DNA of 64,000 nt, taken from Pseudomonadota bacterium. Lineage in GTDB: Bacteria > Bdellovibrionota_B > Oligoflexia > Oligoflexales > CAIYRB01. The position numbers and the translations under genes were made by a program. Positions 1,414 to 63,615 of the stretch are shown here, in pieces. The number at the start of each line of letters is the position of its first letter. The first letter of the stretch is position 1. The stretch covers positions 1-64,000 of the forward strand of contig JANOTL010000153.1 in NCBI GenBank assembly GCA_031416315.1, given 5' to 3'. A model generated the notes under the pieces. It was not told the DNA's origin, did no database searches, and worked only from the letters and a program-made list of their open reading frames with translations.

Positions 1414-3423
1414 ATGTGCGGGATTTTTGGCATTAGTGTTTGCAAATCCGAGAAATCCGACGCGCGGGGTGTCGGTCACATCGTCGACGCGCTCTTCGTC
1501 CTTTCTGAGTCGCGCGGAAAGGAAGCCGCGGGCATCGCCGTCGATTCGGGGCGCAATCTTCGCGTTTTCAAGGAGGCCGTTCCGGCCTCTACGATGATCA
1601 GGTCGCGGGAATACAAGGAATTCTTCGCCGAGGCTTCGGCCTGGCCTGATGATCCAAAGCGCAACCTTGCGGTCATCGGGCATTCGCGCCTCGTCACCAA
1701 CGGCAATTCCGGCATTAGCGACAACAACCAGCCGGTCGTCTCCGGCGGAATCGTCGGCGTCCACAACGGTATTATCGTCAACGACGCCGAGTTGTGGAAG
1801 GCGCATGCCAATTTGAAGCGAAGCTCCGATGTCGACACGGAAGTGCTCCTCGCAATCGTGCGCGAAAAGATCACTTCGGGCACGAACGTTTCGAACGCGG
1901 TCGCCCAAGGATTCGACGAGATCGACGGCGCTGCCTCGGTCGCCCTCCTCTTCGGCGACTACGACGTGCTGCTACTCGCGACGAACAACGGCTCCCATTA
2001 CTATGTCTACGACGATGCGAGCAAGGCCCTGGTCTTCAGCTCTGAGCGACTCATCCTCGAATCCCTCTTCAAACGCGTCAAATCCGTTCGCGACCTTTTC
2101 GCCGACGCAACGATCCGCCAGCTGCGCCCCAACATGGCCTTGATCCAGGACCTCCGTACGGGCTCGATTTCTAGCTTCTCACTCACGGACGAGTCGAGCC
2201 GCCAGGTAGCGATTGCACCCGCGTCTCGCGCGACGATTCGCTCCATCCGCGACGAGTCGGCGAACTCCGAAATCGCTCGCGCCTCGATGCGACGCTGCAC
2301 GGTCTGCATCCTGCCGGAAACTTTTCCGTTCCTGGAGTTCGACGCCAAGGGCGTTTGCTCGCTTTGCCGGACGTACCAAAAAGTCGCGCCACTTGGTCGC
2401 GCGGCTTTGGACGCGCGCGTTGCTCCGCACCGCCGTTCGGACGACCGCCCGGATTGCCTCGTCTCGATCAGCGGCGGCCGAGACAGTTCCTACGGCCTTC
2501 ATTACGTCAAGGAAGAGCTGAAGATGAACCCCGTAGCGTACACCTACGACTGGGGACTCGTCACAGATTTGGCCCGACGCAACATATCGCGCCTATGTGG
2601 GCGCCTCGGCGTCGAGCACATCTTGATCTCCGCCGACATTCGACACAAGCGATCGAACGTCCGCCGCAACATCAATGCATGGCTCAAGCGCCCGGCTCTA
2701 GGAATGATCCCTCTGTTCATGGCGGGGGACAAACAATACTTCTTCCACGGTCACGACCTCGCCAAGAAGACGGGCGCGGACCTAGTCTTCTTCTTCCCGA
2801 ATCGCTTGGAGCGCACGAACTTCAAGTCGGGATTCTGCGGCGTCGACGAAGGCAGCAAATGGTTCTTCAAGATCTCGCTCGCCGAGAAGGCGACGCTCGC
2901 CGCGTATTTTGGCGGTCAAATCCTAAAAAACCCCGCGTTCTTGAACCGCTCTCTCGTCGACACGATTCACGCCTTCTATTCAACTTACTTTCTCCCGAAC
3001 GATCGACTTCTCTTCATGTTCGACTACGTCCCCTGGGACGAAGCGACGATCATGGGGACTTTGCGCCAACACTACGACTGGGAGGCTGCTGCCGACACCG
3101 AATCCACATGGCGCATCGGCGATGGAACCGCCTCGTTCTACAACTACATTTACTACACCGCCGCCGGCTTCACCGAGCACGACACGTTTCGCAGCAATCA
3201 AATTCGTGAAGGGATCATCACGCGCGAGCGCGGCCTGGAGCTGGCGTTGAGAGAGAACCGCCCACGCTTCGATTCGATTCGGCAGTACTCTCAGATCATC
3301 GGCTTCGACTTCGACCATGCCTTGCAGGTCATCAACGCGATGCCAAAGCTCTACATGCGAGAGAACAGGACGCGAACGCTTGTTGCGGCGACCTCAAGCA
3401 GTTCGCAGCTCGAAGCGTTCTAA
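1414..3423 (+). CDS. Class II glutamine amidotransferase domain fused to an N-acetyl-sugar amidotransferase (WbpG/PseA-like PP-loop ATPase)
   Basis: N-terminal MCGIFG, GHSR, HNGII, DTE motifs; C-terminal CTVC..CSLC and PP-loop SGGRDSS. Confidence 0.8.
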   Translation: MCGIFGISVCKSEKSDARGVGHIVDALFVLSESRGKEAAGIAVDSGRNLRVFKEAVPASTMIRSREYKEFFAEASAWPDDPKRNLAVIGHSRLVTNGNSGISDNNQPVVSGGIVGVHNGIIVNDAELWKAHANLKRSSDVDTEVLLAIVREKITSGTNVSNAVAQGFDEIDGAASVALLFGDYDVLLLATNNGSHYYVYDDASKALVFSSERLILESLFKRVKSVRDLFADATIRQLRPNMALIQDLRTGSISSFSLTDESSRQVAIAPASRATIRSIRDESANSEIARASMRRCTVCILPETFPFLEFDAKGVCSLCRTYQKVAPLGRAALDARVAPHRRSDDRPDCLVSISGGRDSSYGLHYVKEELKMNPVAYTYDWGLVTDLARRNISRLCGRLGVEHILISADIRHKRSNVRRNINAWLKRPALGMIPLFMAGDKQYFFHGHDLAKKTGADLVFFFPNRLERTNFKSGFCGVDEGSKWFFKISLAEKATLAAYFGGQILKNPAFLNRSLVDTIHAFYSTYFLPNDRLLFMFDYVPWDEATIMGTLRQHYDWEAAADTESTWRIGDGTASFYNYIYYTAAGFTEHDTFRSNQIREGIITRERGLELALRENRPRFDSIRQYSQIIGFDFDHALQVINAMPKLYMRENRTRTLVAATSSSSQLEAF

Positions 3424-3450: not shown

Positions 3451-4719
3451 TCACGAACTGATTTCTCCGAAGAAACTGAAGCCGAGACACCGCTTCATGA
3501 TGAGCGAGAAATAGGCCACCGAGGCCAGCAGTGCCAACGCGGTCGCTACGGCAGCCCCGAGAATTCCTAGCGTCGGCACGAGCAGAAAGTTCAAGGCGAC
3601 GTTCGTTGCTAGGATCAGCACGGCTTGCGCGGTGAACCACCCTGGATGTCCGGAGTGGATAAGGACGCTGTCAAAAGGCACGGTACCCGAGACTGCGCAC
3701 ACGCCGCTCGCAAGAATCAGGAAAGTCATGGTGACCGTCGCATCGACGCCGAAGTCAGGCGCGAACGCGCCGACGCCGTATAGAAAGAGCGCGATGAGCG
3801 CCGCCAGGACGACAGTTCCCGTGTAGAGCATTCGCCATGACCGCCTTGCCATCGACCGTAAGGCGCCGTATTCGCAACCAGCGACGAGCTTGCCAACCTT
3901 CGGGCTGAAGACGTTCTTCGCGACGACGAGCGTCTGATAGAGTCCCTCAGCGAACGTCGACGCCAGGGAATACTGGCCAACCGCCGTATCCGACAAAAAC
4001 AACCCGATCACGAGAACGTCGACTCGGGTGTTTAGCTCCAGGAAGACGCCGCTCAGGAGTCCGCGAAATCCGAAATGAAGATGCTTCCGTCGCCATTCGA
4101 CCGCTTGAGCCGCGATCCGCAGGTCGACGAGGGGCCAGATCGACGCAATGCCTGCGATGAACACCAGCAGCTCGCCTCCGAGCAGGGCGGCGGGAAGCAT
4201 TTCCACCCGACCGATGCCGACGACATAGGCGATCGTCGCAAACATTCCGACATATCGGATGATTTGCAGGCCCGCGAAGAGGCGAAGCCGCGCTTGCCCG
4301 TTGATCGCCGCCATGATGGTCTTGTTCACGGAAAAGAGCAGCAAAGCGGGCGCGACGTATCGAAGCCCGTCCTCGACCATGGGGCTATCCAAGAGCCCTG
4401 CGATCACACCCTTTAGTAGCCAAACCAAGGCCGCTAGTGCCAAACCGAAACCAAGGCAAAGCGGCAGCGCTGCCGAAAAGGCTTCGCGCCGTTCTGCAGG
4501 GTCCTCTGTCTGAGCGACCGCTCTCAAAACCGACTGATGGACACCGCCAACAGCCAGCTGTCCACCAACGATAAAGACCGCTAGGACTTGGTTGAAAACC
4601 CCAAGCGCCTCACGGCCCATCATCCTCGATATGAGGAAGTTTAGAATTAAACCACTAGCACCAACTACGGCGAGACTCGCGTAGTTCCAGGCCAAATCTG
4701 TCTTTGCGCTCGATGTCAA
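3451..4719 (-). CDS. wzx: Oligosaccharide flippase (Wzx/MOP superfamily)
   Basis: Many TM segments; RVDVLVIGLFLSDTAVGQYSLA and NVALNFLLVPTLGILGAAVAT motifs. Confidence 0.85.
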   Translation of the reverse strand: MTSSAKTDLAWNYASLAVVGASGLILNFLISRMMGREALGVFNQVLAVFIVGGQLAVGGVHQSVLRAVAQTEDPAERREAFSAALPLCLGFGLALAALVWLLKGVIAGLLDSPMVEDGLRYVAPALLLFSVNKTIMAAINGQARLRLFAGLQIIRYVGMFATIAYVVGIGRVEMLPAALLGGELLVFIAGIASIWPLVDLRIAAQAVEWRRKHLHFGFRGLLSGVFLELNTRVDVLVIGLFLSDTAVGQYSLASTFAEGLYQTLVVAKNVFSPKVGKLVAGCEYGALRSMARRSWRMLYTGTVVLAALIALFLYGVGAFAPDFGVDATVTMTFLILASGVCAVSGTVPFDSVLIHSGHPGWFTAQAVLILATNVALNFLLVPTLGILGAAVATALALLASVAYFSLIMKRCLGFSFFGEISS

Positions 4720-4739: not shown

Positions 4740-4816
4740 TGGTAGGCCTGAGTGGACTCGAACCACCGACCTCTACCTTATCAGGGTAGCGCTCTAACCA
4801 CCTGAGCTACAGACCT
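4740..4816 (-). tRNA. tRNA-Ile(GAU)
   Basis: Reverse complement AGGTCTGTAGCTCAGGTGGTTAGAGCG-CTACC-CTGATAA-GGTAG-AGGTCGGTGGTTCGAGTCCACTCAGGCCTACCA; cloverleaf, anticodon GAT, encoded CCA. Confidence 0.97.
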
Positions 4817-4958: not shown

Positions 4959-5858
4959 ATGAACAACGCCGGAGACTCTCTCGACGCTCGTTTGGAGGTG
5001 ATTTCAGGGATTTCGAACGAGCAGTGGCTGTCGAATCTGAGTGACCGAAAGCGCAAGGAGCTGTCTTTCCACGATCGCGATCGTGACCGCGACAAGATCC
5101 AGACGCTCGATACGGACACTTACGAGAAGTTCTACGGCAATAAGAAGTACTACGGCGCCACTGGCGACTCGCGCTCCTATGTCGATCAGTGGATCGCCAC
5201 CAATGCGAAGGGCAAAGTCTTCCTCGACTATGCCTGCGGCAATGGCGCTCGCGCGATCTTCGCGGCGAAAGCCGGCGCTCGTATGGTCATCGGCCTCGAC
5301 ATCAGCTCAGTCTCAGTGGAGAACGCCCGACGCGACGCCGAAGCCGCGGGCGTCAGCGCGAACTGCCGCTTTATCCAGGCCGACGCCGAGAACACGCTCC
5401 TTCCGGCCGATTCGATCGACACGATCCTCTGCTCGGGCATGCTCCACCACCTGGACCTGTCCTTCGCGCTCCCCGAGCTGCGCCGCATCCTCGCTCCGGG
5501 CGGCCGCATCCTCGCTGTCGAGGCTCTCGACTACAATCCGGCGATCAAGATGTATCGCTACATGACGCCTGCCATGCGCACGGACTGGGAAAAAGCCCAC
5601 ATCCTGAGCTTGAAAGACCTGACCTTCGCGAGCCGCTTCTTCGACGTTCGCTCGGTGAACTACTGGCACATCACGTCGATCCTGTCGCCGCACCTGCCGT
5701 TCCTAGCCAAAACCTTCCAGACCCTCGATCGACTGCTGACCAAGGTCCCGCTCGTGAAGTTGATGGCTTGGATGTTCACATTTGAAATGGTGAAGACGAC
5801 GACCGAGAAAGCCTTGGAGCTGCCGGCCGCACCGAAGGCGCCTTCGCTGCCTCACTGA
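4959..5858 (+). CDS. Class I SAM-dependent methyltransferase
   Basis: FLDYACGNG motif I, GLDIS, LHHL, LRRILAPGGR. Confidence 0.9.
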   Translation: MNNAGDSLDARLEVISGISNEQWLSNLSDRKRKELSFHDRDRDRDKIQTLDTDTYEKFYGNKKYYGATGDSRSYVDQWIATNAKGKVFLDYACGNGARAIFAAKAGARMVIGLDISSVSVENARRDAEAAGVSANCRFIQADAENTLLPADSIDTILCSGMLHHLDLSFALPELRRILAPGGRILAVEALDYNPAIKMYRYMTPAMRTDWEKAHILSLKDLTFASRFFDVRSVNYWHITSILSPHLPFLAKTFQTLDRLLTKVPLVKLMAWMFTFEMVKTTTEKALELPAAPKAPSLPH

Positions 5859-5877
5859 TCTCAAGCGTGGGGTTGCG

Positions 5878-6051
5878 TTGAAACACGAGGGCCCGGAAGA
5901 CATTAGAGCGTTCTCGGCCGATCCACTGGCCGTCGGCTACTTCTTCGGAGCCCTCGCTCAGGCTCTGTTCTGCGCTTTGGTCATCGCTGCGATCGTAGCC
6001 GCAGTGTTCCTCGACGTCGAGGCCCGGCCCTTTCGCTATATGGGATTCTAG
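5878..6051 (+). CDS. DltX-like microprotein (57 aa, one TM helix, C-terminal Tyr motif FRYMGF); absent from the ORF track
   Basis: TTG start; MKHEGPEDIRAFSADPLAVGYFFGALAQALFCALVIAAIVAAVFLDVEARPFRYMGF*; fills the gap and ends 4 nt before the ligase ATG. Confidence 0.8.
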   Translation: MKHEGPEDIRAFSADPLAVGYFFGALAQALFCALVIAAIVAAVFLDVEARPFRYMGF

Positions 6052-6055
6052 TCCT

Positions 6056-7552
6056 ATGGAAACGAATCCATTCGAGTGGTTGGAATCGATCGCCGCTGCC
6101 GACCCCGACCGCACCTTGCTCGATCTGGATTCCGGCCGCGTCTCGTATCGAGCCTTTTCGCTTCTTTCGCACGCGCTCGCGAATTCCTTGAGTGCCAAGG
6201 GCGTAGGTCGCGGCGACGCCGTTCCGATCTTCTCCGGCCGCTATGACACCGTTTTAGCTGGAATGTTCGCCTCTTGGCGTCTAGGTGCGACCGCGCTGCC
6301 GATGAACCTGACGCTGACTGGCGCCGCGCGCGCAGCCGTACTGAAGGCCACTCGCTCGGCCGTAGCTCTGGCCGACCTCGAGCTTGCTCCTCGGCTCGGG
6401 ACCGACCACCCTGAGATTCGCGTGGTCGAGCCTTGCGACGTGCCCGCGAATGCTGCGACGAGCTCGAGCCTCGACCTGAACGTCCTGGATGTCGACTGCT
6501 TCTTGAACTTCACCTCCGGCACGACGGGCGTGCCGAAAGGCGTGAGGCTTTCGCCGCGAAAGATCGCCGCGAATGGCGCTGCCGCGGCGCAGTTTCTCGG
6601 CTTGAAGGAAGATACGAGGCTCTTCGTCAACTCGCCGCCCTTCTACATGAGCGGCATCATCCACTTCCTGACGGCTCTGTCCGTCGGCGGCGCGATCATC
6701 AGCCGCCAAGGCTTCTACTTCGGCGCCGACCTTCTGCGCATCCTCGCCGAGACGCGAGCGACGGGCTTCGGCGGCGCCCCGGTGCACCTCAACCGCGTCA
6801 TCGCCGAGCCTTCCGCGCCGAGCGCCGCGCTCTTAAAGGGCCTGTCGTTCTGGATGAGCTCTGGCGATGCGCTGCCAACCGCTAACATCCGCTCTTTCAA
6901 TGCGATGTTCCCCGCCGTTCGGGTCGTCGTCATGTACGGCTTGACCGAGCTGGCGGGGCGGATCTGCGCCATCGACTTGGGCGCTGATCCCGCGGGGATC
7001 GGGTCGGTCGGGAGGCCCCTGCCGAACATGAAAGTATCGATTCTCGATCCGTCGGGACGCGCATGCCGCGTCGAAGAGACGGGCGAGATCCATGTCGAAA
7101 GCCCGTTGCGCATGTCCGGCTACCTCGGGGCCACGGCTTCAGCACCGTCACCGGAAAGCCCCGCCGCCTTTCCGACGGGAGATTTCGGTCACGTCGACGA
7201 AGCCGGGCGGATCTGGCTCGAGGGGCGTCGAGATGACATCTTCAAGTCGGGCGGCGAAAAAGTTAGCCTCCAACTCGTTCGCACCGCGCTGTCCGAATGC
7301 GGCGAGTTCGCGGATTTCGAGGCGATCGCCCTGCCACATGAAGTCATGGGCCACGTGCCGGCGGCAGCCGTCGTGCCAAAGAACCCGTCGACGTTCGAGC
7401 CGCGGCTGAGCTTGCGCATGCTACGATCGAAATTGCCCGCATCTCACGTTCCGAAGAGCCTCAAAGTCGTCGAAAGCGTCCCGCGCACGGGCAGCGGCAA
7501 GGTCCTTCGCTCGGCCGTGTTGGAAATGTTCAAACAGGAGGCTTGCCATTGA
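6056..7552 (+). CDS. Class I adenylate-forming enzyme (acyl/aminoacyl-AMP ligase, DltA-like role)
   Basis: FTSGTTGVPKG, YGLTE, TGDFG, PRTGSGK motifs. Confidence 0.9.
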   Translation: METNPFEWLESIAAADPDRTLLDLDSGRVSYRAFSLLSHALANSLSAKGVGRGDAVPIFSGRYDTVLAGMFASWRLGATALPMNLTLTGAARAAVLKATRSAVALADLELAPRLGTDHPEIRVVEPCDVPANAATSSSLDLNVLDVDCFLNFTSGTTGVPKGVRLSPRKIAANGAAAAQFLGLKEDTRLFVNSPPFYMSGIIHFLTALSVGGAIISRQGFYFGADLLRILAETRATGFGGAPVHLNRVIAEPSAPSAALLKGLSFWMSSGDALPTANIRSFNAMFPAVRVVVMYGLTELAGRICAIDLGADPAGIGSVGRPLPNMKVSILDPSGRACRVEETGEIHVESPLRMSGYLGATASAPSPESPAAFPTGDFGHVDEAGRIWLEGRRDDIFKSGGEKVSLQLVRTALSECGEFADFEAIALPHEVMGHVPAAAVVPKNPSTFEPRLSLRMLRSKLPASHVPKSLKVVESVPRTGSGKVLRSAVLEMFKQEACH

Positions 7553-8991
7553 AAGTCCTAGCACTGGGCGGCAGCGTCCGAGCCGTCAACCCTCGGTCGA
7601 GCGACGCGCTTATGCGCCACATCGCGAAGACTTCCTCCATCGCCGAATTCGCCGAAGCCGTTCGCGCGGACAACGCCGCGCTGGCGGAGCGCGGCATCAC
7701 TCGTCCGATCTTGAGCAACTCCGAGATTCTCTCCGGGATCGCACTCATCGGCGCTAAGGGCCAAGGTGCGTCGGTCGACTACTTTCCCCTCGCCCGCCTC
7801 TTCAACCGCCTGGAAACTCCCGTGCTCCCGGTCAGCGCGAGCGAGCTCGGCCTGGACGACGAGGCCGCTTACGTCGACACGCTGTCGATCAACCCCGCGA
7901 AGCGGGCGCTACTCCTGGAGAAGATCGCGGCGGCGGACGCGATCATCTTGTCGTCGCCGATTTACTTCGGCGATCGCTCGTCGGTCAGCAATAAGGTGCT
8001 GCAAATCGCCCAGGCGGAAGGAAGCCTCAAAGGCAAGCTGGTCGCGACCTTGAGCGTCGGCGCCAAGCGCAACGGCGGTCAAGAAACCACGAACATCTTC
8101 ACCCTGAACGAAGTCGTTCACATGGGCGGGATGATCGTCGGCAACGGGCCGTCGAGCTGCCAGTACGGAGGGACCGCGATCGCGGGCGACGCCGGGACGA
8201 TCCTGAAGGACGAGTGGGGGATGGAGACCGCCTTCGCCACAGGTAAACGCGTCGCGCAAGCAGCCTCCGTCTTGACCACGGCCATCGACCCGAGTCACGA
8301 GACCGCTCCGATCGAAATCATGGCGATCGTGACCATGGACATGCCGCAACGGATCCTTGCCGAGACTTTACGCGCGCATCAGCAAAGCTTGCTGCAAGCG
8401 GGTCATCGCGTGAATCTCTCCGTCGTACAGCTGATCGACGGATACATCGAGCGCTGCCTGGCCTGCAACATTTGCCCGATTCCCGAGCTGATGAAGTCGC
8501 CGAAAGACTACGGCTGCATCATCCAATCGGGTCGCGACATCATGAAGGACGTTCGGGAACAGATGCTCGCCAGCGACGGCATCATCATCGCCGGACTCAA
8601 CCTTCGCGACATGCGCAACGTCGTCTATCGGTATCAAGCGTTCACGGAGCGCACGCGATTCATCCGGCGCAACGACTTCGAGCTGACCAACGTTCCACTG
8701 ACGTCATTTACTCTGGAAGAGGTCGGCGGCGCCGGGAACGACATCTTCGGTCTCAAGGTCATGACGTCATACATTCGCCACAACACGATCGTCTGCCCGC
8801 CGATTTCGGAGATTCTCCACGAGGGTCAAACGATCAAGTCTGCCCTCCCCGAAATGGAGGCCTTCGTGCGCACCGCCGGCGCGATTGCCGCGAAGCGTCG
8901 GGCCGCGGCGCGTTACGCCGTCAGCTACAAAGCCGGCGGCCACGGCGGCTACTCGGACACGCGTCTCGATTCGACGGAGGCGATGCGTTGA
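7549..8991 (+). CDS. Tandem flavodoxin-fold protein (NADPH-dependent FMN reductase / iron-sulfur flavoprotein-like)
   Basis: Domain 1 ADAIILSSPIYFG...RNGGQETT; domain 2 CLACNIC...C; TTGA overlap with AGGAGG RBS. Confidence 0.75.
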   Translation: MKVLALGGSVRAVNPRSSDALMRHIAKTSSIAEFAEAVRADNAALAERGITRPILSNSEILSGIALIGAKGQGASVDYFPLARLFNRLETPVLPVSASELGLDDEAAYVDTLSINPAKRALLLEKIAAADAIILSSPIYFGDRSSVSNKVLQIAQAEGSLKGKLVATLSVGAKRNGGQETTNIFTLNEVVHMGGMIVGNGPSSCQYGGTAIAGDAGTILKDEWGMETAFATGKRVAQAASVLTTAIDPSHETAPIEIMAIVTMDMPQRILAETLRAHQQSLLQAGHRVNLSVVQLIDGYIERCLACNICPIPELMKSPKDYGCIIQSGRDIMKDVREQMLASDGIIIAGLNLRDMRNVVYRYQAFTERTRFIRRNDFELTNVPLTSFTLEEVGGAGNDIFGLKVMTSYIRHNTIVCPPISEILHEGQTIKSALPEMEAFVRTAGAIAAKRRAAARYAVSYKAGGHGGYSDTRLDSTEAMR

Positions 8992-9260
8992 ACAACGCGA
9001 CTGGAGAGGCCGCCATCTCGGCTGTGCTTCTGGATTTCATCCGCGTCGACCTCGTCGATGGCCCGCAAGAAATCGACGCCGAGACCGCGCTCTTCAGTAG
9101 CCGCGTCCTCGACTCCATCAAATTGCTCGACCTAGTCAATTTCATGGAGTCGGAGTTCCGCATGAAAGTGCGCCCGATGGAGATCGTCATGGAAAACTTC
9201 GACTCGGTCGCTCGCATTTGCGGTTACGTCCGACGCACCCAAGAAAGGGGCCAGACATAG
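8988..9260 (+). CDS. Acyl carrier protein (DltC-like, 90 aa)
   Basis: C-terminal part of ORF 8472..9260; VLDSIKLLDLV phosphopantetheine Ser motif, ENFDSV; TTGA overlap with GGAGG RBS. Confidence 0.88.
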   Translation: MNNATGEAAISAVLLDFIRVDLVDGPQEIDAETALFSSRVLDSIKLLDLVNFMESEFRMKVRPMEIVMENFDSVARICGYVRRTQERGQT

Positions 9261-10336
9261 CGGAGTTTGTCGCGGCGCGGCGCTTCGTTGCGGGTTTAGC
9301 AGCCGGCTGGAAGGCCAAAAGTGGGCGCCAGCTCTTCTTGAATGCCCTCGCTTCGCTGGTCGTGCTGGTTGGAATCGAATTCGCGGCGCGGCACCAAGCC
9401 TATTGCTTGCTTCCGGAGGCGATGCTTAGGTATAGCGCTGGCGACGACTACACGTCTGCCGCGTGCAAGGTCTTCCGCGCGCGTCGAGTAAAGGCGCGGG
9501 AGTCTTGTGTCTACGTCCTCGGCGGCTCGGCGATCCGCGAGCTGACCGCCGACGATGCCGCGCTCAGCCGTGCGATTTCTTCCGCCTCGGGGACGAACAG
9601 CCGCGTGTGGAACCTCGCGTCGTCGTCGCAGACCTTGGGCGGCAGCCTTTCGCTCCTCGAGCGCGTGCCGACGTGCGGCCGAGAGCTCTTCGTCGTCGGA
9701 GTCTCGGTTGGCCGCATGGCTTCGCCGCTGAGTGACTTCGAGGCCGAAGTTCTGGGCAATCGAGCTCCTGGAGTCGCGAAAATCTCCTATGACTTCGTCG
9801 CGTCTCGCCTAGATGTCCCGTTCTTTGCCCGTTTCGACGCGTTCGCCGCGACGATGCTGGCGAGGAGGGCCTTCAAGACACACTTGCTTACGAACGCAGG
9901 CGCGGCCGACCGGGGCTACATTCAGCACGTCTACGACACGATGGGAAAACCGACTGAGGCCCTCATAGCCGAGATACGGGCGCGAATCCCGCCCGAATTG
10001 GTGGATGGATATCGCGCGAATCACGTCGCCAATTCCGTCTTCCTCGACTGGCTCGTGGAAGCGGCGCGGCGGCGCGGCGCTGAACTGGCGTTCCTCGAGC
10101 AACCGACGAATCCCCTTTACCACGAGATGATTCGAACGGAGGATGATCGCCACGGGGAGACCATGACGTCGCGCGCGCATGCGGCGGGGGTCCCTTATCT
10201 GCGACTCGAGACCGAAAGCCTTAGTCCGGACGACTTCTACGATCTTTCGCACGTTTTCGAGAGCGGCCGGGCCAAGGTTCAGCCGCTTTTGGTCAACGCG
10301 CTTGCGGCCCTGATCCGCAAAGAGCGCGACCGGTGA
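9218..10336 (+). CDS. Membrane-anchored SGNH/DltD-AlgJ-like acyltransferase (true start may be ATA at 9257)
   Basis: N-terminal TM helix, block I VLGGSA, C-terminal DFYDLSH (DxxH). Confidence 0.7.
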   Translation: MRLRPTHPRKGPDIAEFVAARRFVAGLAAGWKAKSGRQLFLNALASLVVLVGIEFAARHQAYCLLPEAMLRYSAGDDYTSAACKVFRARRVKARESCVYVLGGSAIRELTADDAALSRAISSASGTNSRVWNLASSSQTLGGSLSLLERVPTCGRELFVVGVSVGRMASPLSDFEAEVLGNRAPGVAKISYDFVASRLDVPFFARFDAFAATMLARRAFKTHLLTNAGAADRGYIQHVYDTMGKPTEALIAEIRARIPPELVDGYRANHVANSVFLDWLVEAARRRGAELAFLEQPTNPLYHEMIRTEDDRHGETMTSRAHAAGVPYLRLETESLSPDDFYDLSHVFESGRAKVQPLLVNALAALIRKERDR

Positions 10337-11586
10337 CGGATTTCATCCTCGGCTGGAAGGGCCTCGCGTTCTGGATCGTGATCTTCGCCTGCCGGTGGGC
10401 GCCCCCCCATCGGCGAGAATTTCCATCGGCGCGAATCGCGATCCTCTCCTGCGCGTACGTCGCGTGGTTCGAGCCCGCCTTCACGCTCTTTTGTGCCGTG
10501 ATCGGCGCGATCCTTTGGTTGTTGCGACCGACCGGGGTTCGCCTTTTGTTTTCGCTGGTCGTGCTCCTAGCCGCATCTTTCGCCCTAAAGTATGGAGCAT
10601 GGACGTCGTCCGCTGCCGCGAGCATCGGGATCGCCATTCCAAGCTATGCGATGCCGATCGGGACCAGCTATTTCGTGTTTCGCATGACCTTGTTCATCTT
10701 CGATCGCTACCGCGGCCTCATCCCGCCGGATGGGCGGGAGGGCCGCTGGGCTTTCGCGAACTACGTGTTCTTCGTCCCCGCGTGGGCCGCGGGTCCGATT
10801 GATTCCTTCAACAATCGGATGCAACAGCTTGCATCCGCGTTCGACCCGCATCTGGTCGCAGCTGGGATTCAGCGCGTATTCTGGGGAGTCTTCAAGAAGA
10901 TCGTCATCGTCGAGGGCCTCGCGGCCGTGATGTTCGGACAGATCCTCACGCGCGTCGCCGACGGCCAAACGGATTTGAGCACCCTGCCGTCTTTAGCTCC
11001 TGCCGCATTCGTCGTCTTGGCGTTCGTGGTCGCGTATCTGGATTTGTCCGCATACACCGACATCGCGATCGGGACGGCATTGACGCTTGGAATCCGCTTG
11101 CCTGAGAACTTCCAGCGTCCTTTCGCGCAAAGAAACATCTCTGAGTTCTGGCGAAGCTGGCACATCAGCCTTTCGGCGTGGTGTCGCAGCGTCGTGTACT
11201 TCCCGGTCTTCGGATTCACGAAACGCCCGGTCATCGCGATGTACGCGACAATGCTCACCATGGGGCTGTGGCACGACTTCGGCTGGAACTGGCTAGTCTG
11301 GGGTTGCTATCACGGCAGCGCCTTGGCCCTGTACGCCGTCTGGGATCGATTCAAGCGCCGTCGCCCCTCCCTACGACGTCTCTTCGATTCGCCTCCCGTT
11401 CGCGTCGGCGGCATGATCTCGACCTTCCTGTTCGTCGCGCTTGGATATGCCTTCGTCGCGACGAAGTCGATCGACCGAGCATTCGAGGTCTTTAGGGCCG
11501 CGCCTGTGGGGGTCGTCGAATGCGTTAAGTCCTCGACGTGCAGTTTAGGCGCGCTGCGTCCCAGCCGGTTTCCTGCCGCTCCCTGA
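10333..11586 (+). CDS. MBOAT family O-acyltransferase (DltB/AlgI-like)
   Basis: AGPI, YTDIAIG, PENFQRPF, EFWRSWHISLS, GLWH...WGCYHG motifs. Confidence 0.93.
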   Translation: MTDFILGWKGLAFWIVIFACRWAPPHRREFPSARIAILSCAYVAWFEPAFTLFCAVIGAILWLLRPTGVRLLFSLVVLLAASFALKYGAWTSSAAASIGIAIPSYAMPIGTSYFVFRMTLFIFDRYRGLIPPDGREGRWAFANYVFFVPAWAAGPIDSFNNRMQQLASAFDPHLVAAGIQRVFWGVFKKIVIVEGLAAVMFGQILTRVADGQTDLSTLPSLAPAAFVVLAFVVAYLDLSAYTDIAIGTALTLGIRLPENFQRPFAQRNISEFWRSWHISLSAWCRSVVYFPVFGFTKRPVIAMYATMLTMGLWHDFGWNWLVWGCYHGSALALYAVWDRFKRRRPSLRRLFDSPPVRVGGMISTFLFVALGYAFVATKSIDRAFEVFRAAPVGVVECVKSSTCSLGALRPSRFPAAP

Positions 11587-12269: not shown

Positions 12270-13151
12270 TTAGCGGAGGAGAGCCAAGGCGGCTTCCGGC
12301 GCTTGGTTCGCCTGCGAGAGGACGGAGATGCCGGCCTGCTGCAGGATCTTGTTCTGGGTGAACTGGGCCGTCTCGTCGGCGAAGTCGACGTCACGGATGC
12401 GGCTGTTGGCGGACTTCATGTTCTCGATTTGGACGCCGAGGTTGTTCACGGTCGAGCCAAGGCGGCTTTGCTGCGCGCCGATGTAGGCGCGGTTCGAGCT
12501 GATCGAGAGGATCGCCTTGTCGATGACGGTCAGCTTCTCGGCCGCGGTCGAGCGGCTAAAGTCGTCGCCCGGGTTTTCGGGGCCGATCTCGGCGCCTTTG
12601 CCGAGGCCCATCTCCTCGATGTTGACCTTCAGGCTATCGATGCCGATCTGGATCGTGTCGGTGTTCTCGACCGAGCCGTCGCCAGCGCCGACATGGATGG
12701 TGAACAAGCCTTCGGCGCCGGCGGCTTCTTGGCCCTGCAGGAGCGGGGTCGAGTTCCACTCCGTGGTGTTCGCGATGCGCTGCACCTCGTTGACGAGCTG
12801 CACGTACTCACGGTTCGTGAACTCGCGCTCGGTGTTGCCGATCGTGTCGGACGCGGCCTGCGTCGCGAGCTCGCGAAGCCGAACGAGGATGTTCCCGACC
12901 TCGTTCATGCTGCCTTCCGCCGTCTGGACGAGCGAGATGCCGTCCTGGGCGTTGCGTTTGGCCTGGCTCAGAGAGCCCATCTTCGCCTTCATCCCTTCGG
13001 AGATGGCGAGGCCGGCGGCGTCATCGGCGGATTTATTGATGCGATAGCCGCTCGACAGTTTCGCCATGTTCTCGCCCATGGAGGCGGTGGAGTTGGCGAG
13101 GTTACGCTGCGCGTTCACCGAGGCAGTGTTGGTTCTGATCCGAAGGCCCAT
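12270..13151 (-). CDS. fliC: Flagellin
   Basis: LSSGYRINKSADDAAGLAIS N-terminus; SRIRDVDFA...QAN C-terminus. Confidence 0.97.
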   Translation of the reverse strand: MGLRIRTNTASVNAQRNLANSTASMGENMAKLSSGYRINKSADDAAGLAISEGMKAKMGSLSQAKRNAQDGISLVQTAEGSMNEVGNILVRLRELATQAASDTIGNTEREFTNREYVQLVNEVQRIANTTEWNSTPLLQGQEAAGAEGLFTIHVGAGDGSVENTDTIQIGIDSLKVNIEEMGLGKGAEIGPENPGDDFSRSTAAEKLTVIDKAILSISSNRAYIGAQQSRLGSTVNNLGVQIENMKSANSRIRDVDFADETAQFTQNKILQQAGISVLSQANQAPEAALALLR

Positions 13152-34726: not shown

Positions 34727-35659
34727 TCAGCCGCGGAGCAGGGCGAGGACGGCCTCGGGCGCCGCGTTGGCTTGGGCCAGGACCGAGATGCCGGCCTGCT
34801 GCAGGATGCGGTTCTGGGTGAATTTCGCCGTCTCGGCGGCGTAGTCCACGTCGCGGATGCGGCTTTGAGCGGCCTGAAGGTTCTCGTTCGAGATCTCGAT
34901 GTTGTTGATCGTGCTGTTGAGGCGCGATTGCACCGAGCCGAGGGTCGCGCGGTAGCTCGAGATGGCGTTTTGCGCCGTGTCGAGGACCGAGAAGAGCTCG
35001 CCGGTGTCGCCACTGCCGAGCTCGGAGGCGGTGAGGCCTTCGCCGCCGCCGTCCGGGAGGATGGAGAAGTCGTCGCCCGTGATGTCCGTGATCGCTTCGC
35101 CCAAGGCGCTCAGCTCGGTCAGCTCGATCTTGATGATGTCCGGGTCCATGTCGGCGTCGATCTCGGGCGCGTCGCCGGCCATGTCCTTGCCGCGGTTGGA
35201 GGCGCCGACGAAGATCTGGATCGGGTTGTCGCCGTCGCCGCCCTGCAGCACTTTCGAGCCGTTGAACTCGGTCGACTCGACGATGCGGGCGACTTCCTGG
35301 CGAAGCTGGACGAACTCTTTGTCGAGGAAGCTGCGCTCGCGCTCGCCGAGGGTGTCCGACGCGGCCTGGGTGGCCAGCTCGCGCATGCGGATCACGATGT
35401 TGGTGACTTCGTTCAGGCCGCCTTCGGCCACCTGGATGTACGAGATGCCGTCGCTGGCGTTTCTCTTGGCGACGCCTAAGCCCGCCGTCGTGGCGCGAAT
35501 GCGCTCCGACACGGCGAGACCGGCGGCGTCGTCGGCCGATTTGTTGATCCGCAAGCCGGAAGACAACTTCTCGAGCGACTCGCCCATGCCCTTGCCCGAT
35601 TCGCCCAAACGGCGCTGGGCATTGATCGAAGCGACGTTTGTCTTGATACGGAGACCCAT
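34727..35659 (-). CDS. fliC: Flagellin
   Basis: LSSGLRINKSADDAAGLAVS; SRIRDVDYA. Confidence 0.97.
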   Translation of the reverse strand: MGLRIKTNVASINAQRRLGESGKGMGESLEKLSSGLRINKSADDAAGLAVSERIRATTAGLGVAKRNASDGISYIQVAEGGLNEVTNIVIRMRELATQAASDTLGERERSFLDKEFVQLRQEVARIVESTEFNGSKVLQGGDGDNPIQIFVGASNRGKDMAGDAPEIDADMDPDIIKIELTELSALGEAITDITGDDFSILPDGGGEGLTASELGSGDTGELFSVLDTAQNAISSYRATLGSVQSRLNSTINNIEISNENLQAAQSRIRDVDYAAETAKFTQNRILQQAGISVLAQANAAPEAVLALLRG

Positions 35660-35750: not shown

Positions 35751-36626
35751 CTAGCGCAGGAGCTGGAGGGCCATCTCCGGCATCTGGTTCGCCTGCGACA
35801 AGACCGCGGTCGACGAGCTGCTCATGATGCGGGCCTGCGTGAGCGTCGCCGTCTCGGCGGCGAAATCGACGTCCTTGATGCGGCTCATCGCGGCCGTTTG
35901 GCTCTCGATCGACGTGCCCAGGTTGCTGATCGCAGAGCCGAGGCGGTTCTGGATGGCTCCCAAGGTCGCGCGCTCGCCGGCGATCCTGTTCAGGCTGTCG
36001 TCGATCGTCGTGAGCTTCGACGCGATGTCCTCACGGGACGGGCCGTCTTCGCCGTCGACGCCGCCGATTTCGGCTTCTTTGCCGAAACCGAGAGTCTCGG
36101 TCGTGAACTTCAAGCCCTCGAGGTTGATTTTGAGGGTGTCGATGTTCTCTTCGGGGGAGGTGCCGCGCGTGCCGACCTGGATCACGAACTCCGACATCTC
36201 ATTTTCGGGGTCGAAGATCTTATTGCCGTTGAATTCGGTCGACTTGGCGATCCGGTCCATCTCGTCGACGAGCTGCGTGTACTCGTTGTTGAGGTAGCCG
36301 CGCTCTTTTTCACCGAGCGTGTCGGTGGAGGACTGAACGGTGAGCTCGCGCATCCGGATCAGGATGTTCGACATCTCGTTCATGCTGCCTTCAGCCACCT
36401 GGACGAGGGACACGGCGTCGTTGGCGTTGCGCTTGGCGACGTTGAGGCCCCGGACCTGCCCGCGCAGGTTCTCGGTGATGGCGAGACCGGCGGCGTCGTC
36501 GGCCGACTTGTTGATGCGGTAGCCCGAGGAGAGTTTCTCCAGGGAGTTCGACATCTGTGCCTGGTTATTCTCGGTATGACGCTGGGCGGTCAGGCTGGCA
36601 ACGTTCGTGCGGATTCGCATTCCCAT
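35751..36626 (-). CDS. fliC: Flagellin
   Basis: MGMRIRTN start after AGGGAGG; LSSGYRINKSADDAAGLAI; SRIKDVDFA. Confidence 0.97.
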   Translation of the reverse strand: MGMRIRTNVASLTAQRHTENNQAQMSNSLEKLSSGYRINKSADDAAGLAITENLRGQVRGLNVAKRNANDAVSLVQVAEGSMNEMSNILIRMRELTVQSSTDTLGEKERGYLNNEYTQLVDEMDRIAKSTEFNGNKIFDPENEMSEFVIQVGTRGTSPEENIDTLKINLEGLKFTTETLGFGKEAEIGGVDGEDGPSREDIASKLTTIDDSLNRIAGERATLGAIQNRLGSAISNLGTSIESQTAAMSRIKDVDFAAETATLTQARIMSSSSTAVLSQANQMPEMALQLLR

Positions 36627-36712
36627 GACAATTCCTCCCTGATAAAGCTCACTCAACGGCGGCATCCAAGCCCCCGTCATCTGCAAGCTCCACCCTGGAA
36701 CTTGCAAAGCTA

Positions 36713-36739
36713 CCAACGGCTTATTTGCCGAAAACTTGA
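36713..36739 (-). promoter_or_regulatory. sigma28 promoter of flagellin
   Basis: TCAAGTTT-N11-GCCGTTGG. Confidence 0.7.
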
Positions 36740-36801
36740 ATCTCCGTTTGCGAATTGCCAAAAAATGGCAGGTTCGCGAGCGAGGTCGGGGTCATGAACG
36801 A

Positions 36802-46714: not shown

Positions 46715-46791
46715 GCACCTGTGGCTCAGCTGGATAGAGCACCAGACTACGAATCTGGGGGTCGGAGGTTCGAATCCTTCCAGGTGCGCCA
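46715..46791 (+). tRNA. tRNA-Arg(ACG)
   Basis: GCACCTGTGGCTCAGCTGGATAGAGCA-CCAGA-CTACGAA-TCTGG-GGGTCGGAGGTTCGAATCCTTCCAGGTGCGCCA. Confidence 0.97.
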
Positions 46792-62067: not shown

Positions 62068-63615
62068 TTACGCCGGGAGGAGCGCTTCGAAATCATCGGC
62101 CGTGACGCAGTCTGGCAGCCGCTCAATGACCCGGGTCAGGTAGCTCACCGGCTCGACGCCGTTAGCCTTGGCGGTGAGGAGGAGGCTGTAGATATTGGCG
62201 CTCGCCTGCGCGCCGGCCTCGGTGCACATGAAGAGCCAATTTTTTCTTCCGAGGGCGAATGGCCGGAAGGAGTTTTCCGCGAGGTTATTGTCGAGCTCGA
62301 TGGCGCCGTGCTCGAGGTAGTTGCGGATGTGCGGCAACTCTTCGTCGGCGTAGCGCAGCGCCGCGAAGTACGGCGAGGAGCTGGCGACTGCCTGCCGCTC
62401 GTCGGCGACGAGCTGGGCAAGGTCGTCGAAGAGATGTTCGGCCCCTTGCTCGAGCCTATAGGCAAGTCGCGTTTCTGGCGCGAACGGTCGGCAAACATCT
62501 TCGATCTCGTAAAGCGCTTTGACCATCTTCACGATCTTCGCGGCCGGGTGCGCGGCGCGCTGGTCTTTCGCGGTCGTGGCGATCACGTCCTTGAATTTGC
62601 GCACGACGTGCGCCATGCAGCCGACGCGCGTGCGCGGTGAGGTGTCGCCGAACAGGAGATCGTAGGAAGCAAAGCCGTCGATCTGCACAAACCCCTCGTA
62701 GGAGCCGAGCAGCTTCTGCGCTACCTCTTTTTTTCGCGACAGGTCGAATTCGAAGACGACAAGCGGCTTCGGCCCCCAGCGCGAGATTTGCCACATGTAA
62801 GCCTGGTGCGACGTGCGCGCGCCGTCTTTAGTGAGCACGCGCACCGGAGTCTCGTCGGCGTTTACGACGGGACCGTCCAGAATGCGCTCGTGGATGAGGC
62901 CAATCAGCGGCTTCACCGCCTCGCCCAGCCTGATTACCCAATCGGCCATCACCTGACGCGTCAGATGCACTCCGGATCGGCTGTAGATTTGTTCTTGGCG
63001 ATAGAGCGGTAGATGATCGCAGTATTTCGCCGCGACAATCTGCGCCAAGAGCGACGGAGCTGCGTAACTTTGCGGGATGAGCGCCGGCAGCGGCGGCTTT
63101 CTGATGGGAGCACCCTTGCAGGTGTCGCAGCCGTATTTCGGGAAGCGGTGCTCGACCACCTCGAACTTCGCCGGGGTTTATTTCAGCTCCAGCTTGACGT
63201 CATAGCCCATGGGAGAAAGCGACGAGCCGTTGGTGGCGCAGGTTTTCTCGGCGTCATCGACATCATGTTCCACGACCGTGCGCGGGAGATGGTCGGGGAT
63301 CGCCGGTTTTTTCTTTTTCCGCTTCTTGGGATTATCCGCCGGCTGCTCGTCGTCGTCGACCAAAGTCTCGACCTTTGGGTCGAGGGTCATCTCAGCTTCG
63401 TCGAACATCTCGCGCAACGCGGCGGACGACACGATGTCCGGACGCGCGGCACGGAGAGCTATCAGGTACTGCTGCTTGATGAAGGCGATCTGCTGCTTGT
63501 AGTACGCGTGCGTCTTTTCGAGCTCGCCCACGAGGTCCTCGCAGACGGCTTTGGCCTCCGGCGTGAGGCTCGCCGGGATTTCGTAGGATTTGAGTTTGAG
63601 CGCTCGTTGCTGCAT
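62068..63615 (-). pseudogene. tnpC: IS66 transposase TnpC with an in-frame TAA at 63178-63180
   Basis: HLPR, KYCDHLPLYRQ, ADET, DG, CMAH..RKF, DNN.AE...GRKNWLF; the two ORFs are in the same frame. Confidence 0.9.

Follow-up and report, generated by a model that had tools for sequence, protein, structure and literature searches.

A Dlt-type acylation relay with an inserted tandem flavodoxin-fold protein in a diderm bacterium

Two described kinds of system that pair an MBOAT protein with an SGNH-type protein come close to the locus reported here. As outlined in PMC12148441, the DltXABCD system for D-alanylation of teichoic acid comprises, in one operon, a ligase, a phosphopantetheine carrier, a tail-less MBOAT, a free microprotein ending in the motif that defines the acyl shuttle, FXYXXF, and an SGNH-type transferase. 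MBOAT-SGNH pathways other than Dlt are described in the same source as having neither a carrier nor a DltX-like microprotein and as bearing the motif on the MBOAT tail; PatA/PatB and related O-acetyltransferases, with acetyl-CoA as donor, are of this kind. We have analysed a 64,000-nucleotide stretch of DNA from a Pseudomonadota bacterium (contig JANOTL010000153.1, positions 1 to 64,000; the window), in which positions 4959-11586 encode an operon that is a real new variant of the Dlt-type relay. It has a counterpart of each part of DltXABCD, a putative one in the case of the SGNH-type transferase, but its ligase is not DltA, its gene order is unlike that of the Dlt operon, and a tandem flavodoxin-fold protein with predicted flavin mononucleotide (FMN) and Fe-S cofactors (hereafter, the flavoprotein) is inserted. 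With the PatA/PatB systems it shares the MBOAT and SGNH pair, the Tyr motif and a diderm host; unlike them and the AlgIJ type, it has its motif on a separate peptide and encodes a ligase and a carrier. On balance, we lean towards a reading in which an acyl group other than alanine is carried by the relay to a glycan of the cell surface, the free acid being made by the flavoprotein.

The diderm setting is not novel, since Dlt genes have been reported from the Gram-negative Dickeya and Pectobacterium (PMC5541007). In the literature searched, we found no description of a ligase-flavoprotein-MBOAT module or of the flavoprotein, and no link between Dlt-like modules and a flavoprotein-enolase cassette. 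That the host is a diderm, as the initial annotation had proposed, is borne out by LolA, encoded in the window, and LpxC, encoded in the genome; the (lipo)teichoic acid acceptor of the Dlt system cannot be assumed for this operon.

The annotation had also described seven co-oriented and tightly coupled genes, and all seven open reading frames were found on the + strand at the positions claimed. A class I S-adenosylmethionine methyltransferase (4959-5858; 299 residues, soluble; Pfam Methyltransf_25, 73 bits) is followed after 19 nucleotides by a DltX-like membrane microprotein (5878-6051; 57 residues, with a single hydrophobic helix and the C-terminal sequence FRYMGF) and, after a further 4 nucleotides, by an adenylate-forming ligase (6056-7552; 498 residues; Pfam AMP-binding, 197 bits). 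The remaining genes are joined by 4-nucleotide overlaps. The ligase gene shares TTGA (7549-7552) with that of the flavoprotein (7549-8991; 480 residues; Pfam FMN_red, 57.9), which in turn shares TTGA (8988-8991) with the acyl carrier protein gene (8988-9260; 90 residues; PF00550 (PP-binding), 21.7 against a cut-off of 20.8). The overlap of the carrier gene with that of a membrane-anchored SGNH/DltD-like acyltransferase (9257-10336; about 359 residues) is ATAG (9257-9260) and holds only if the latter gene begins with ATA; with TTG at 9218, in frame, as the other candidate, its start is uncertain. Finally, GTGA (10333-10336) links this gene to that of a DltB-like MBOAT (10333-11586; 417 residues; PF03062, 84.8 bits). 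Judged from spacing alone, the seven genes would be co-transcribed, with the methyltransferase gene probably first in the transcript. A scan for consensus promoters gave 0 sites and terminator-like sites numbered 3, under the mean of shuffled sequence, an uninformative outcome.

The five Dlt-like parts claimed earlier, namely ligase, carrier, MBOAT, Tyr microprotein and SGNH-type protein, are all present. In the microprotein, F52, R53, Y54 and F57 are invariant among 16 aligned homologs, and Tyr54 is the predicted acyl shuttle. Only 7 of the 103,396 stop-to-stop frames of at least 30 residues in the host genome end in F-x-Y-x-x-F, and because they include four MBOATs with fused tails (besides the window microprotein and 2 further frames), the FRYMGF ending is not due to chance. 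The tailed proteins, on contigs C55, C67, C109 and C160 of genome G000, make up four of the five MBOATs of the host; the only tail-less one is the window MBOAT, which is accompanied by the microprotein. Its catalytic His314 is invariant in 13 aligned sequences, its sole NCBIfam match is TIGR04091 (DltB) at 137 bits, under the cut-off of 375, and a profile search of the PDB returned the DltB structures 8jem and 6bug as best matches (E 1e-50). The carrier has Ser43 within an L-D-S-I motif and scores 17.8 bits with the DltC model (cut-off 68).

The assignments to methyltransferase, AMP-binding, FMN_red, PP-binding and MBOAT families pass their Pfam cut-offs, but no match to the SGNH-type protein, DltD included, was found in Pfam or NCBIfam. 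This protein has a single N-terminal hydrophobic helix, and G-G-S91 and D329-x-x-H332, invariant among 15 aligned homologs, point to a predicted triad of Ser91, Asp329 and His332. A profile search of the PDB gave weak matches at E 0.6 or worse, including the acetyltransferase 6vjp/6wn9 over the DxxH region, and a single-sequence AlphaFold model was unusable (predicted local distance difference test, pLDDT, 36.6). Its neighbours in the ESM Atlas (0.96-0.97) include clusters of DUF1574 and one in which 20% of the members carry DltD, which we take as a lead only. The FRYMGF microprotein, the tail-less MBOAT with His314 and the matches to DltB structures argue that the relay works like Dlt, and from the conserved residues together with gene linkage we regard a Dlt-type mechanism as highly probable.

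The ligase sets the operon apart from Dlt. As the initial annotation had suspected, it reads as closer to acyl-CoA ligases than to DltA: DltA is not in the best 25 of 105 NCBIfam families, the best matches being acyl-CoA ligases, and against PDB chains it scores 82 bits with DltA 3e7w and 145 bits with FadD5. An amine-binding Asp (D235/D197) is attributed to DltA in PMC11253843, which also mentions exceptions such as McyG; Met198 of the window ligase aligns with the position that is Asp in LgrA. The pocket residues S199, H203, S269-G270 and G301-R302 are invariant among 27 sequences of the subfamily. R302 lies within the loop that follows the Y-G-x-T-E motif, the region of K330 and R331 in VinN (PMC11253843), and may hint at a second anionic group on the substrate. 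By these sequence features, the ligase belongs to a distinct, acyl-CoA-ligase-like subfamily.

The flavoprotein has a confident AlphaFold model (pLDDT 94.7), in which residues 1-246 match PnpB (4la4, Z 18.4) and residues 254-476 match 1sqs (Z 16.0) in a fold search; identity to solved chains is 25% at most. BLASTP between the two halves detects no similarity, and a duplication is suggested by the fold search on the model. The N-terminal half keeps the WrbA-type FMN motifs (S9, R11 and N57; P137-x-Y-F-G-D; G-A-K-R-N-G-G-Q-E-T), while four Cys (303, 306, 309 and 323) are invariant in the C-terminal half. The protein is thus predicted, from conserved residues only, to bind FMN and to have redox activity, and the four Cys are a predicted [4Fe-4S] site. 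The protein resembles the Isf/WrbA family, which includes RosB (5mji) and the flavone reductase 7d38 as catalytic relatives, in its flavodoxin fold, its FMN-binding motifs and its cluster motif of four Cys. It differs in having two domains per chain, with the FMN motifs in one and the Cys motif only in the second. The Isf motif is given as CX2CX2CX5-7C (PMC3164229), in a compact single-domain subunit, whereas the window flavoprotein has CX2CX2CX13C in two fused domains; among 155 loci, the last gap is X11 in 94 and ranges from 7 to 22.

A genome scan with the single flavoprotein sequence gave 0 matches and was rerun with an alignment; relatives at E 0.001 or better number 590 (8000 candidates scored). 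We surveyed 160 loci, consisting of the best 80 of 179 confirmed genome matches and the best 80 of at least 232 confirmed metagenome matches. Neighbouring open reading frames were clustered, representatives were checked against Pfam and NCBIfam, and all frames were scored with hidden Markov models built from the clusters. Enolase and ATP-grasp genes accompany the flavoprotein in 56 loci, a ligase and a tail-less MBOAT in 25, a ligase and an AAC(3)-like gene in 12, and a ligase in another or truncated context in 15; the remainder have an enolase only (10), an ATP-grasp only (6), a Tam-like methyltransferase (9), a carrier only (2), both a ligase and enolase/ATP-grasp genes (1) or none of these (24). 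The flavoprotein therefore does co-occur with MBOAT-carrier modules elsewhere, as the initial annotation had supposed, but it is not specific to them. Dereplication at 85% identity left 137 loci, and removal of 60 with less than 3 kb on a side left 77: 37 with enolase and ATP-grasp, 31 with an AMP-ligase (18 ligase-MBOAT, 7 ligase-AAC(3)-like, 6 other), 2 with an enolase only, 1 with an ATP-grasp only, 1 Tam-like and 5 with none.

An acid-activating enzyme is hence nearby in 69 of the 77 loci (31 AMP-ligase, 37 enolase and ATP-grasp, 1 ATP-grasp only), and the flavoprotein almost always directly adjoins the acid-activating gene or the enolase. A ligase lies 6.7 kb off in L042 and L070, but none of the 77 combines an AMP-ligase with the enolase and ATP-grasp pair inside the distance limits. 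Three unrelated activators are involved: a ligase with the G-R pocket of the window enzyme (38 loci, including all 25 flavoprotein-MBOAT loci), a second ligase type with oxalyl-CoA synthetases as best PDB matches, as tested for L141 (14 loci), and the ATP-grasp protein (56 loci, all of them free of a carrier gene up to 5 kb away). Of the 25 flavoprotein-MBOAT loci, 22 have a frame that ends in FRYxxF; of the 56 enolase/ATP-grasp loci, 1 does. Cultured organisms that have the module are represented by Marinomonas sp. MED121 (L071) and by a type-strain record (L039). According to their record titles, the MBOAT loci belong to Bdellovibrionales, Leptospirales, Desulfovibrionaceae, Desulfobacterales, Ignavibacteriaceae, Gemmatimonadaceae, and alpha- and gammaproteobacteria. 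Searches of a plasmid collection gave 0 matches to the flavoprotein, 0 to the window ligase at E 1e-40 and two uninformative matches at 32-33% to the second ligase type; no full-length flavoprotein was found in 40 relatives searched, and no organism with a solved glycan structure that would name the acid was found.

The contexts are mostly inherited yet have been switched repeatedly. On a midpoint-rooted FastTree of 131 flavoproteins, the label (ligase versus enolase/ATP-grasp) changes 6 times, compared with a mean of 37.9 and a minimum of 31 in shuffles. The sister of the window flavoprotein, L001 (support 0.97, 47% identity), is an enolase/ATP-grasp locus; L011, an enolase locus, is nested within ligase loci (57-59% identity), and the reverse holds for two ligase loci, L141 and L076, which fall within enolase loci (56-60%), so that cross-context pairs are 47-60% identical. 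The 12 most context-discriminating columns track clade and not context in the 11 switch-pair sequences inspected. Given that the protein is paired with three unrelated activators, and that one of these has no carrier, the simplest reading is that it makes a free acid.

Some loci show further arrangements. Fusions join ATP-grasp and enolase in L104 (4765-6906) and ligase and AAC(3)-like protein in L118 (11538-14300) and L141 (5105-7810). In L111 (656-10484) the flavoprotein lies between a non-ribosomal peptide synthetase module, a ligase-carrier fusion and a MaoC-type dehydratase-ligase fusion, and in L160 (1425-3819) flavoprotein and enolase are followed by an SGNH protein of the window's family, where the contig ends. 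Genome G131 has two flavoprotein copies, one in a ligase-carrier locus (L008) and one in an enolase/ATP-grasp locus (L052/L175). Of 53 ligase loci, 6 have a methylmalonyl-CoA-epimerase-like gene no more than 4 kb away, which may represent an equivalent, on the carrier, of the enolase step. Three single loci have a sulfur-related gene next to the flavoprotein gene: a CysH-like reductase directly upstream in L050 (9063-9881), an adenosine 5'-phosphosulfate kinase directly downstream in L011 (11384-12097) and a metallo-beta-lactamase-rhodanese fusion in L094 (11400-12668). A sulfonate as the product was considered from the first two, but 2 of 160 loci are too few and we keep it as a lead only.

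Modules were also searched from the ligase, with a profile run over six genome samples (131, 401, 301, 371, 285 and 371); only 3-12 candidates per genome were scored, so misses are possible. The ligase subfamily was found in none of the 130 other genomes of the phylum searched. Beyond the centre genomes, four ligases of the G-R type were found (454-530 bits), the next matches scoring at most 357 bits and belonging, in each of the six that were fetched, to other types. Every one of the four lies beside MBOAT and carrier genes, and a FRYxGF peptide is present in three, but only the module of G1816 has the flavoprotein. With three of four independent modules devoid of it, either the acid also comes from elsewhere or the flavoprotein is accessory; it is a frequent but optional supplier, or modifier. 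The flavoprotein-free module of G945 (L172, 3831-12319) contains two short SGNH-like candidates, an unassigned 570-residue protein and a divergent aldehyde dehydrogenase, which passes no family cut-off; a scripted search of L172 found no FxYxxF peptide.

The reading that we favour can be set out as a series of steps. The FMN/[4Fe-4S] flavoprotein would make a small polar acid, probably doubly anionic, free in the cytoplasm, a redox step at a C=C or carbonyl bond being the best guess. The ligase, whose family is established, would adenylate this acid and load it onto Ser43 of the carrier. By analogy with Dlt, and with the catalytic residues conserved, His314 of the MBOAT would move the acyl group to Tyr54 of the microprotein, from where it would reach Ser91 of the periplasmic SGNH protein. 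The SGNH protein may then esterify a polysaccharide, either lipid-linked or on the surface, for which the product of the nearby Wzx cluster is the likeliest candidate. Elsewhere, the same product may be delivered in the cytoplasm by ligase, carrier and an AAC(3)-like or hexapeptide transferase, or by an alternative route through an ATP-grasp ligase and an enolase-superfamily racemase or dehydratase. A broader version, which we put forward tentatively and with somewhat less than even confidence, is that the flavoprotein is an undescribed enzyme making an unrecognised small acid (e.g. a substituted dicarboxylate or a sulfonate-bearing acid) that decorates surface glycans in more than 12 bacterial phyla and some archaea, by way of three activating chemistries unrelated to one another and of transferases that act either in the cytoplasm or across the membrane; the operon would then be a self-contained six-gene make-and-export system using a DltX-type tyrosine shuttle.

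Several observations weigh against this reading. A full-length flavoprotein was not found genome-wide in G410, G260 and G945, the genomes, as searched, of the three modules that are devoid of it, and 5 of the 77 well-flanked loci are without any partner. The Scalindua-type cluster pairs the flavoprotein with a Tam-like methyltransferase. In L001, the nearest relative, enolase and ATP-grasp genes are on the other strand and 4.4-5.5 kb off. The survey is confined to the best 80 matches from each source, and its context models were derived from the very loci that they scored. The sugar cluster near the operon is cut by the contig start and separated from it by an opposite-strand Wzx gene and a tRNA gene, and every chemical step from substrate to acceptor is one that we infer. 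As for the Tam-like gene, it follows the flavoprotein gene in L002, L004 and L082-L088, which include the Scalindua records, with no ligase or ATP-grasp nearby.

The initial annotation had placed the tailoring on the carrier. In such a scheme, the ligase would load a common acid, which the flavoprotein would modify on the carrier or, in the ATP-grasp loci, after attachment to a nucleotide sugar. The enolase is found in the 56 ATP-grasp loci and in 0 of 52 ligase loci (MBOAT, AAC(3) or other) within 5 kb, L129 having both, a distribution that fits a shift of the alpha-carbon chemistry onto the thioester; flavoprotein and carrier genes often abut; and modules that have this ligase pocket but no flavoprotein could serve to export the acid without modification. 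The proposal would require one family to take both acyl-carrier and carrier-free substrates across at least 6 switches without context-specific residues. The co-occurrence of the flavoprotein with the module stands, but its action on the carrier is weakened by the 56 of 160 loci with ATP-grasp and no nearby carrier and by the flavoprotein-free modules, and we consider it unlikely, though a serious alternative. Another possibility is that the flavoprotein travels with glycan loci as a passenger, with a sugar nucleotide as its substrate or a general redox role of the Isf/WrbA type, and that the relay exports an ordinary metabolite. Its absence from three of the four sampled modules, the stand-alone loci and its frequent proximity to amino-sugar and amidotransferase genes are in keeping with this, but its position as immediate neighbour of an activating gene or enolase, and in the window its overlap with both the ligase and the carrier genes, make a passenger role rather doubtful. 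A true Dlt system moving D-alanine or another alpha-amino acid, as proposed for Dickeya lipopolysaccharide, would have the same architecture, with DltB as the sole family match of the MBOAT and with precedent in amino-acid adenylation domains that lack the Asp (e.g. McyG; PMC11253843), but the family and structure scores of the ligase, Met at the Asp position, and DltB and DltC models far under cut-off make it very improbable.

The methyltransferase is not conserved in the module. It had been suggested as a further tailoring enzyme, but a full-length relative occurs in only one of the 160 loci (L147, 107 bits, 30% identity), the others scoring at most 34 bits, and on conservation we rejected it as a core part of the module. 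Unrelated methyltransferases are common in flavoprotein loci, and the role may be filled non-orthologously elsewhere.

Upstream of the operon lies a sugar cluster that comprises a hexapeptide acyltransferase, a GlmS-type glutaminase fused to a WbuX-type amidotransferase (1414-3423, + strand; outside the operon) and a Wzx/MOP flippase (3451-4719, - strand; PF13440 and PF01943), and is incomplete because the window begins at the contig start. Between the sugar genes and the operon stand the Wzx gene and a tRNA-Ile gene (4740-4816, - strand), the latter divergent from the methyltransferase gene. In L064, the second gene downstream from that of the flavoprotein shares 54% identity with the GlmS-WbuX fusion across 650 columns, and strong relatives also follow flavoprotein-enolase genes in L043, L058 and L120. 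The fusion is thus a likely functional neighbour of the operon, and its relatives in four flavoprotein-enolase loci favour the adjacent glycan as acceptor, without showing it to be so. A flagellin gene (12270-13151) follows the operon closely, with a Fis-like gene in between. Because glycosylation of flagellin takes place in the cytoplasm and the relay ends in the periplasm, we judge this protein an unlikely acceptor. Two more flagellin genes (34727-35659 and 35751-36761), a tRNA-Arg gene (46715-46791, + strand) and an IS66-family transposase gene (62068-63159) are located further downstream in the window.

In conclusion, the combination of a carrier and a microprotein with a ligase other than DltA in many diderm lineages makes the Dlt relay look like a general platform for the export of unusual acyl groups. 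The flavoprotein connects this relay with a common, uncharacterised cassette of glycan loci that consists of flavoprotein, enolase and ATP-grasp. Ligase, carrier and flavoprotein are soluble, so that the acid could be named from the mass of the acyl group that the loaded carrier bears, which would also assign a role to a protein family with 590 or more members.

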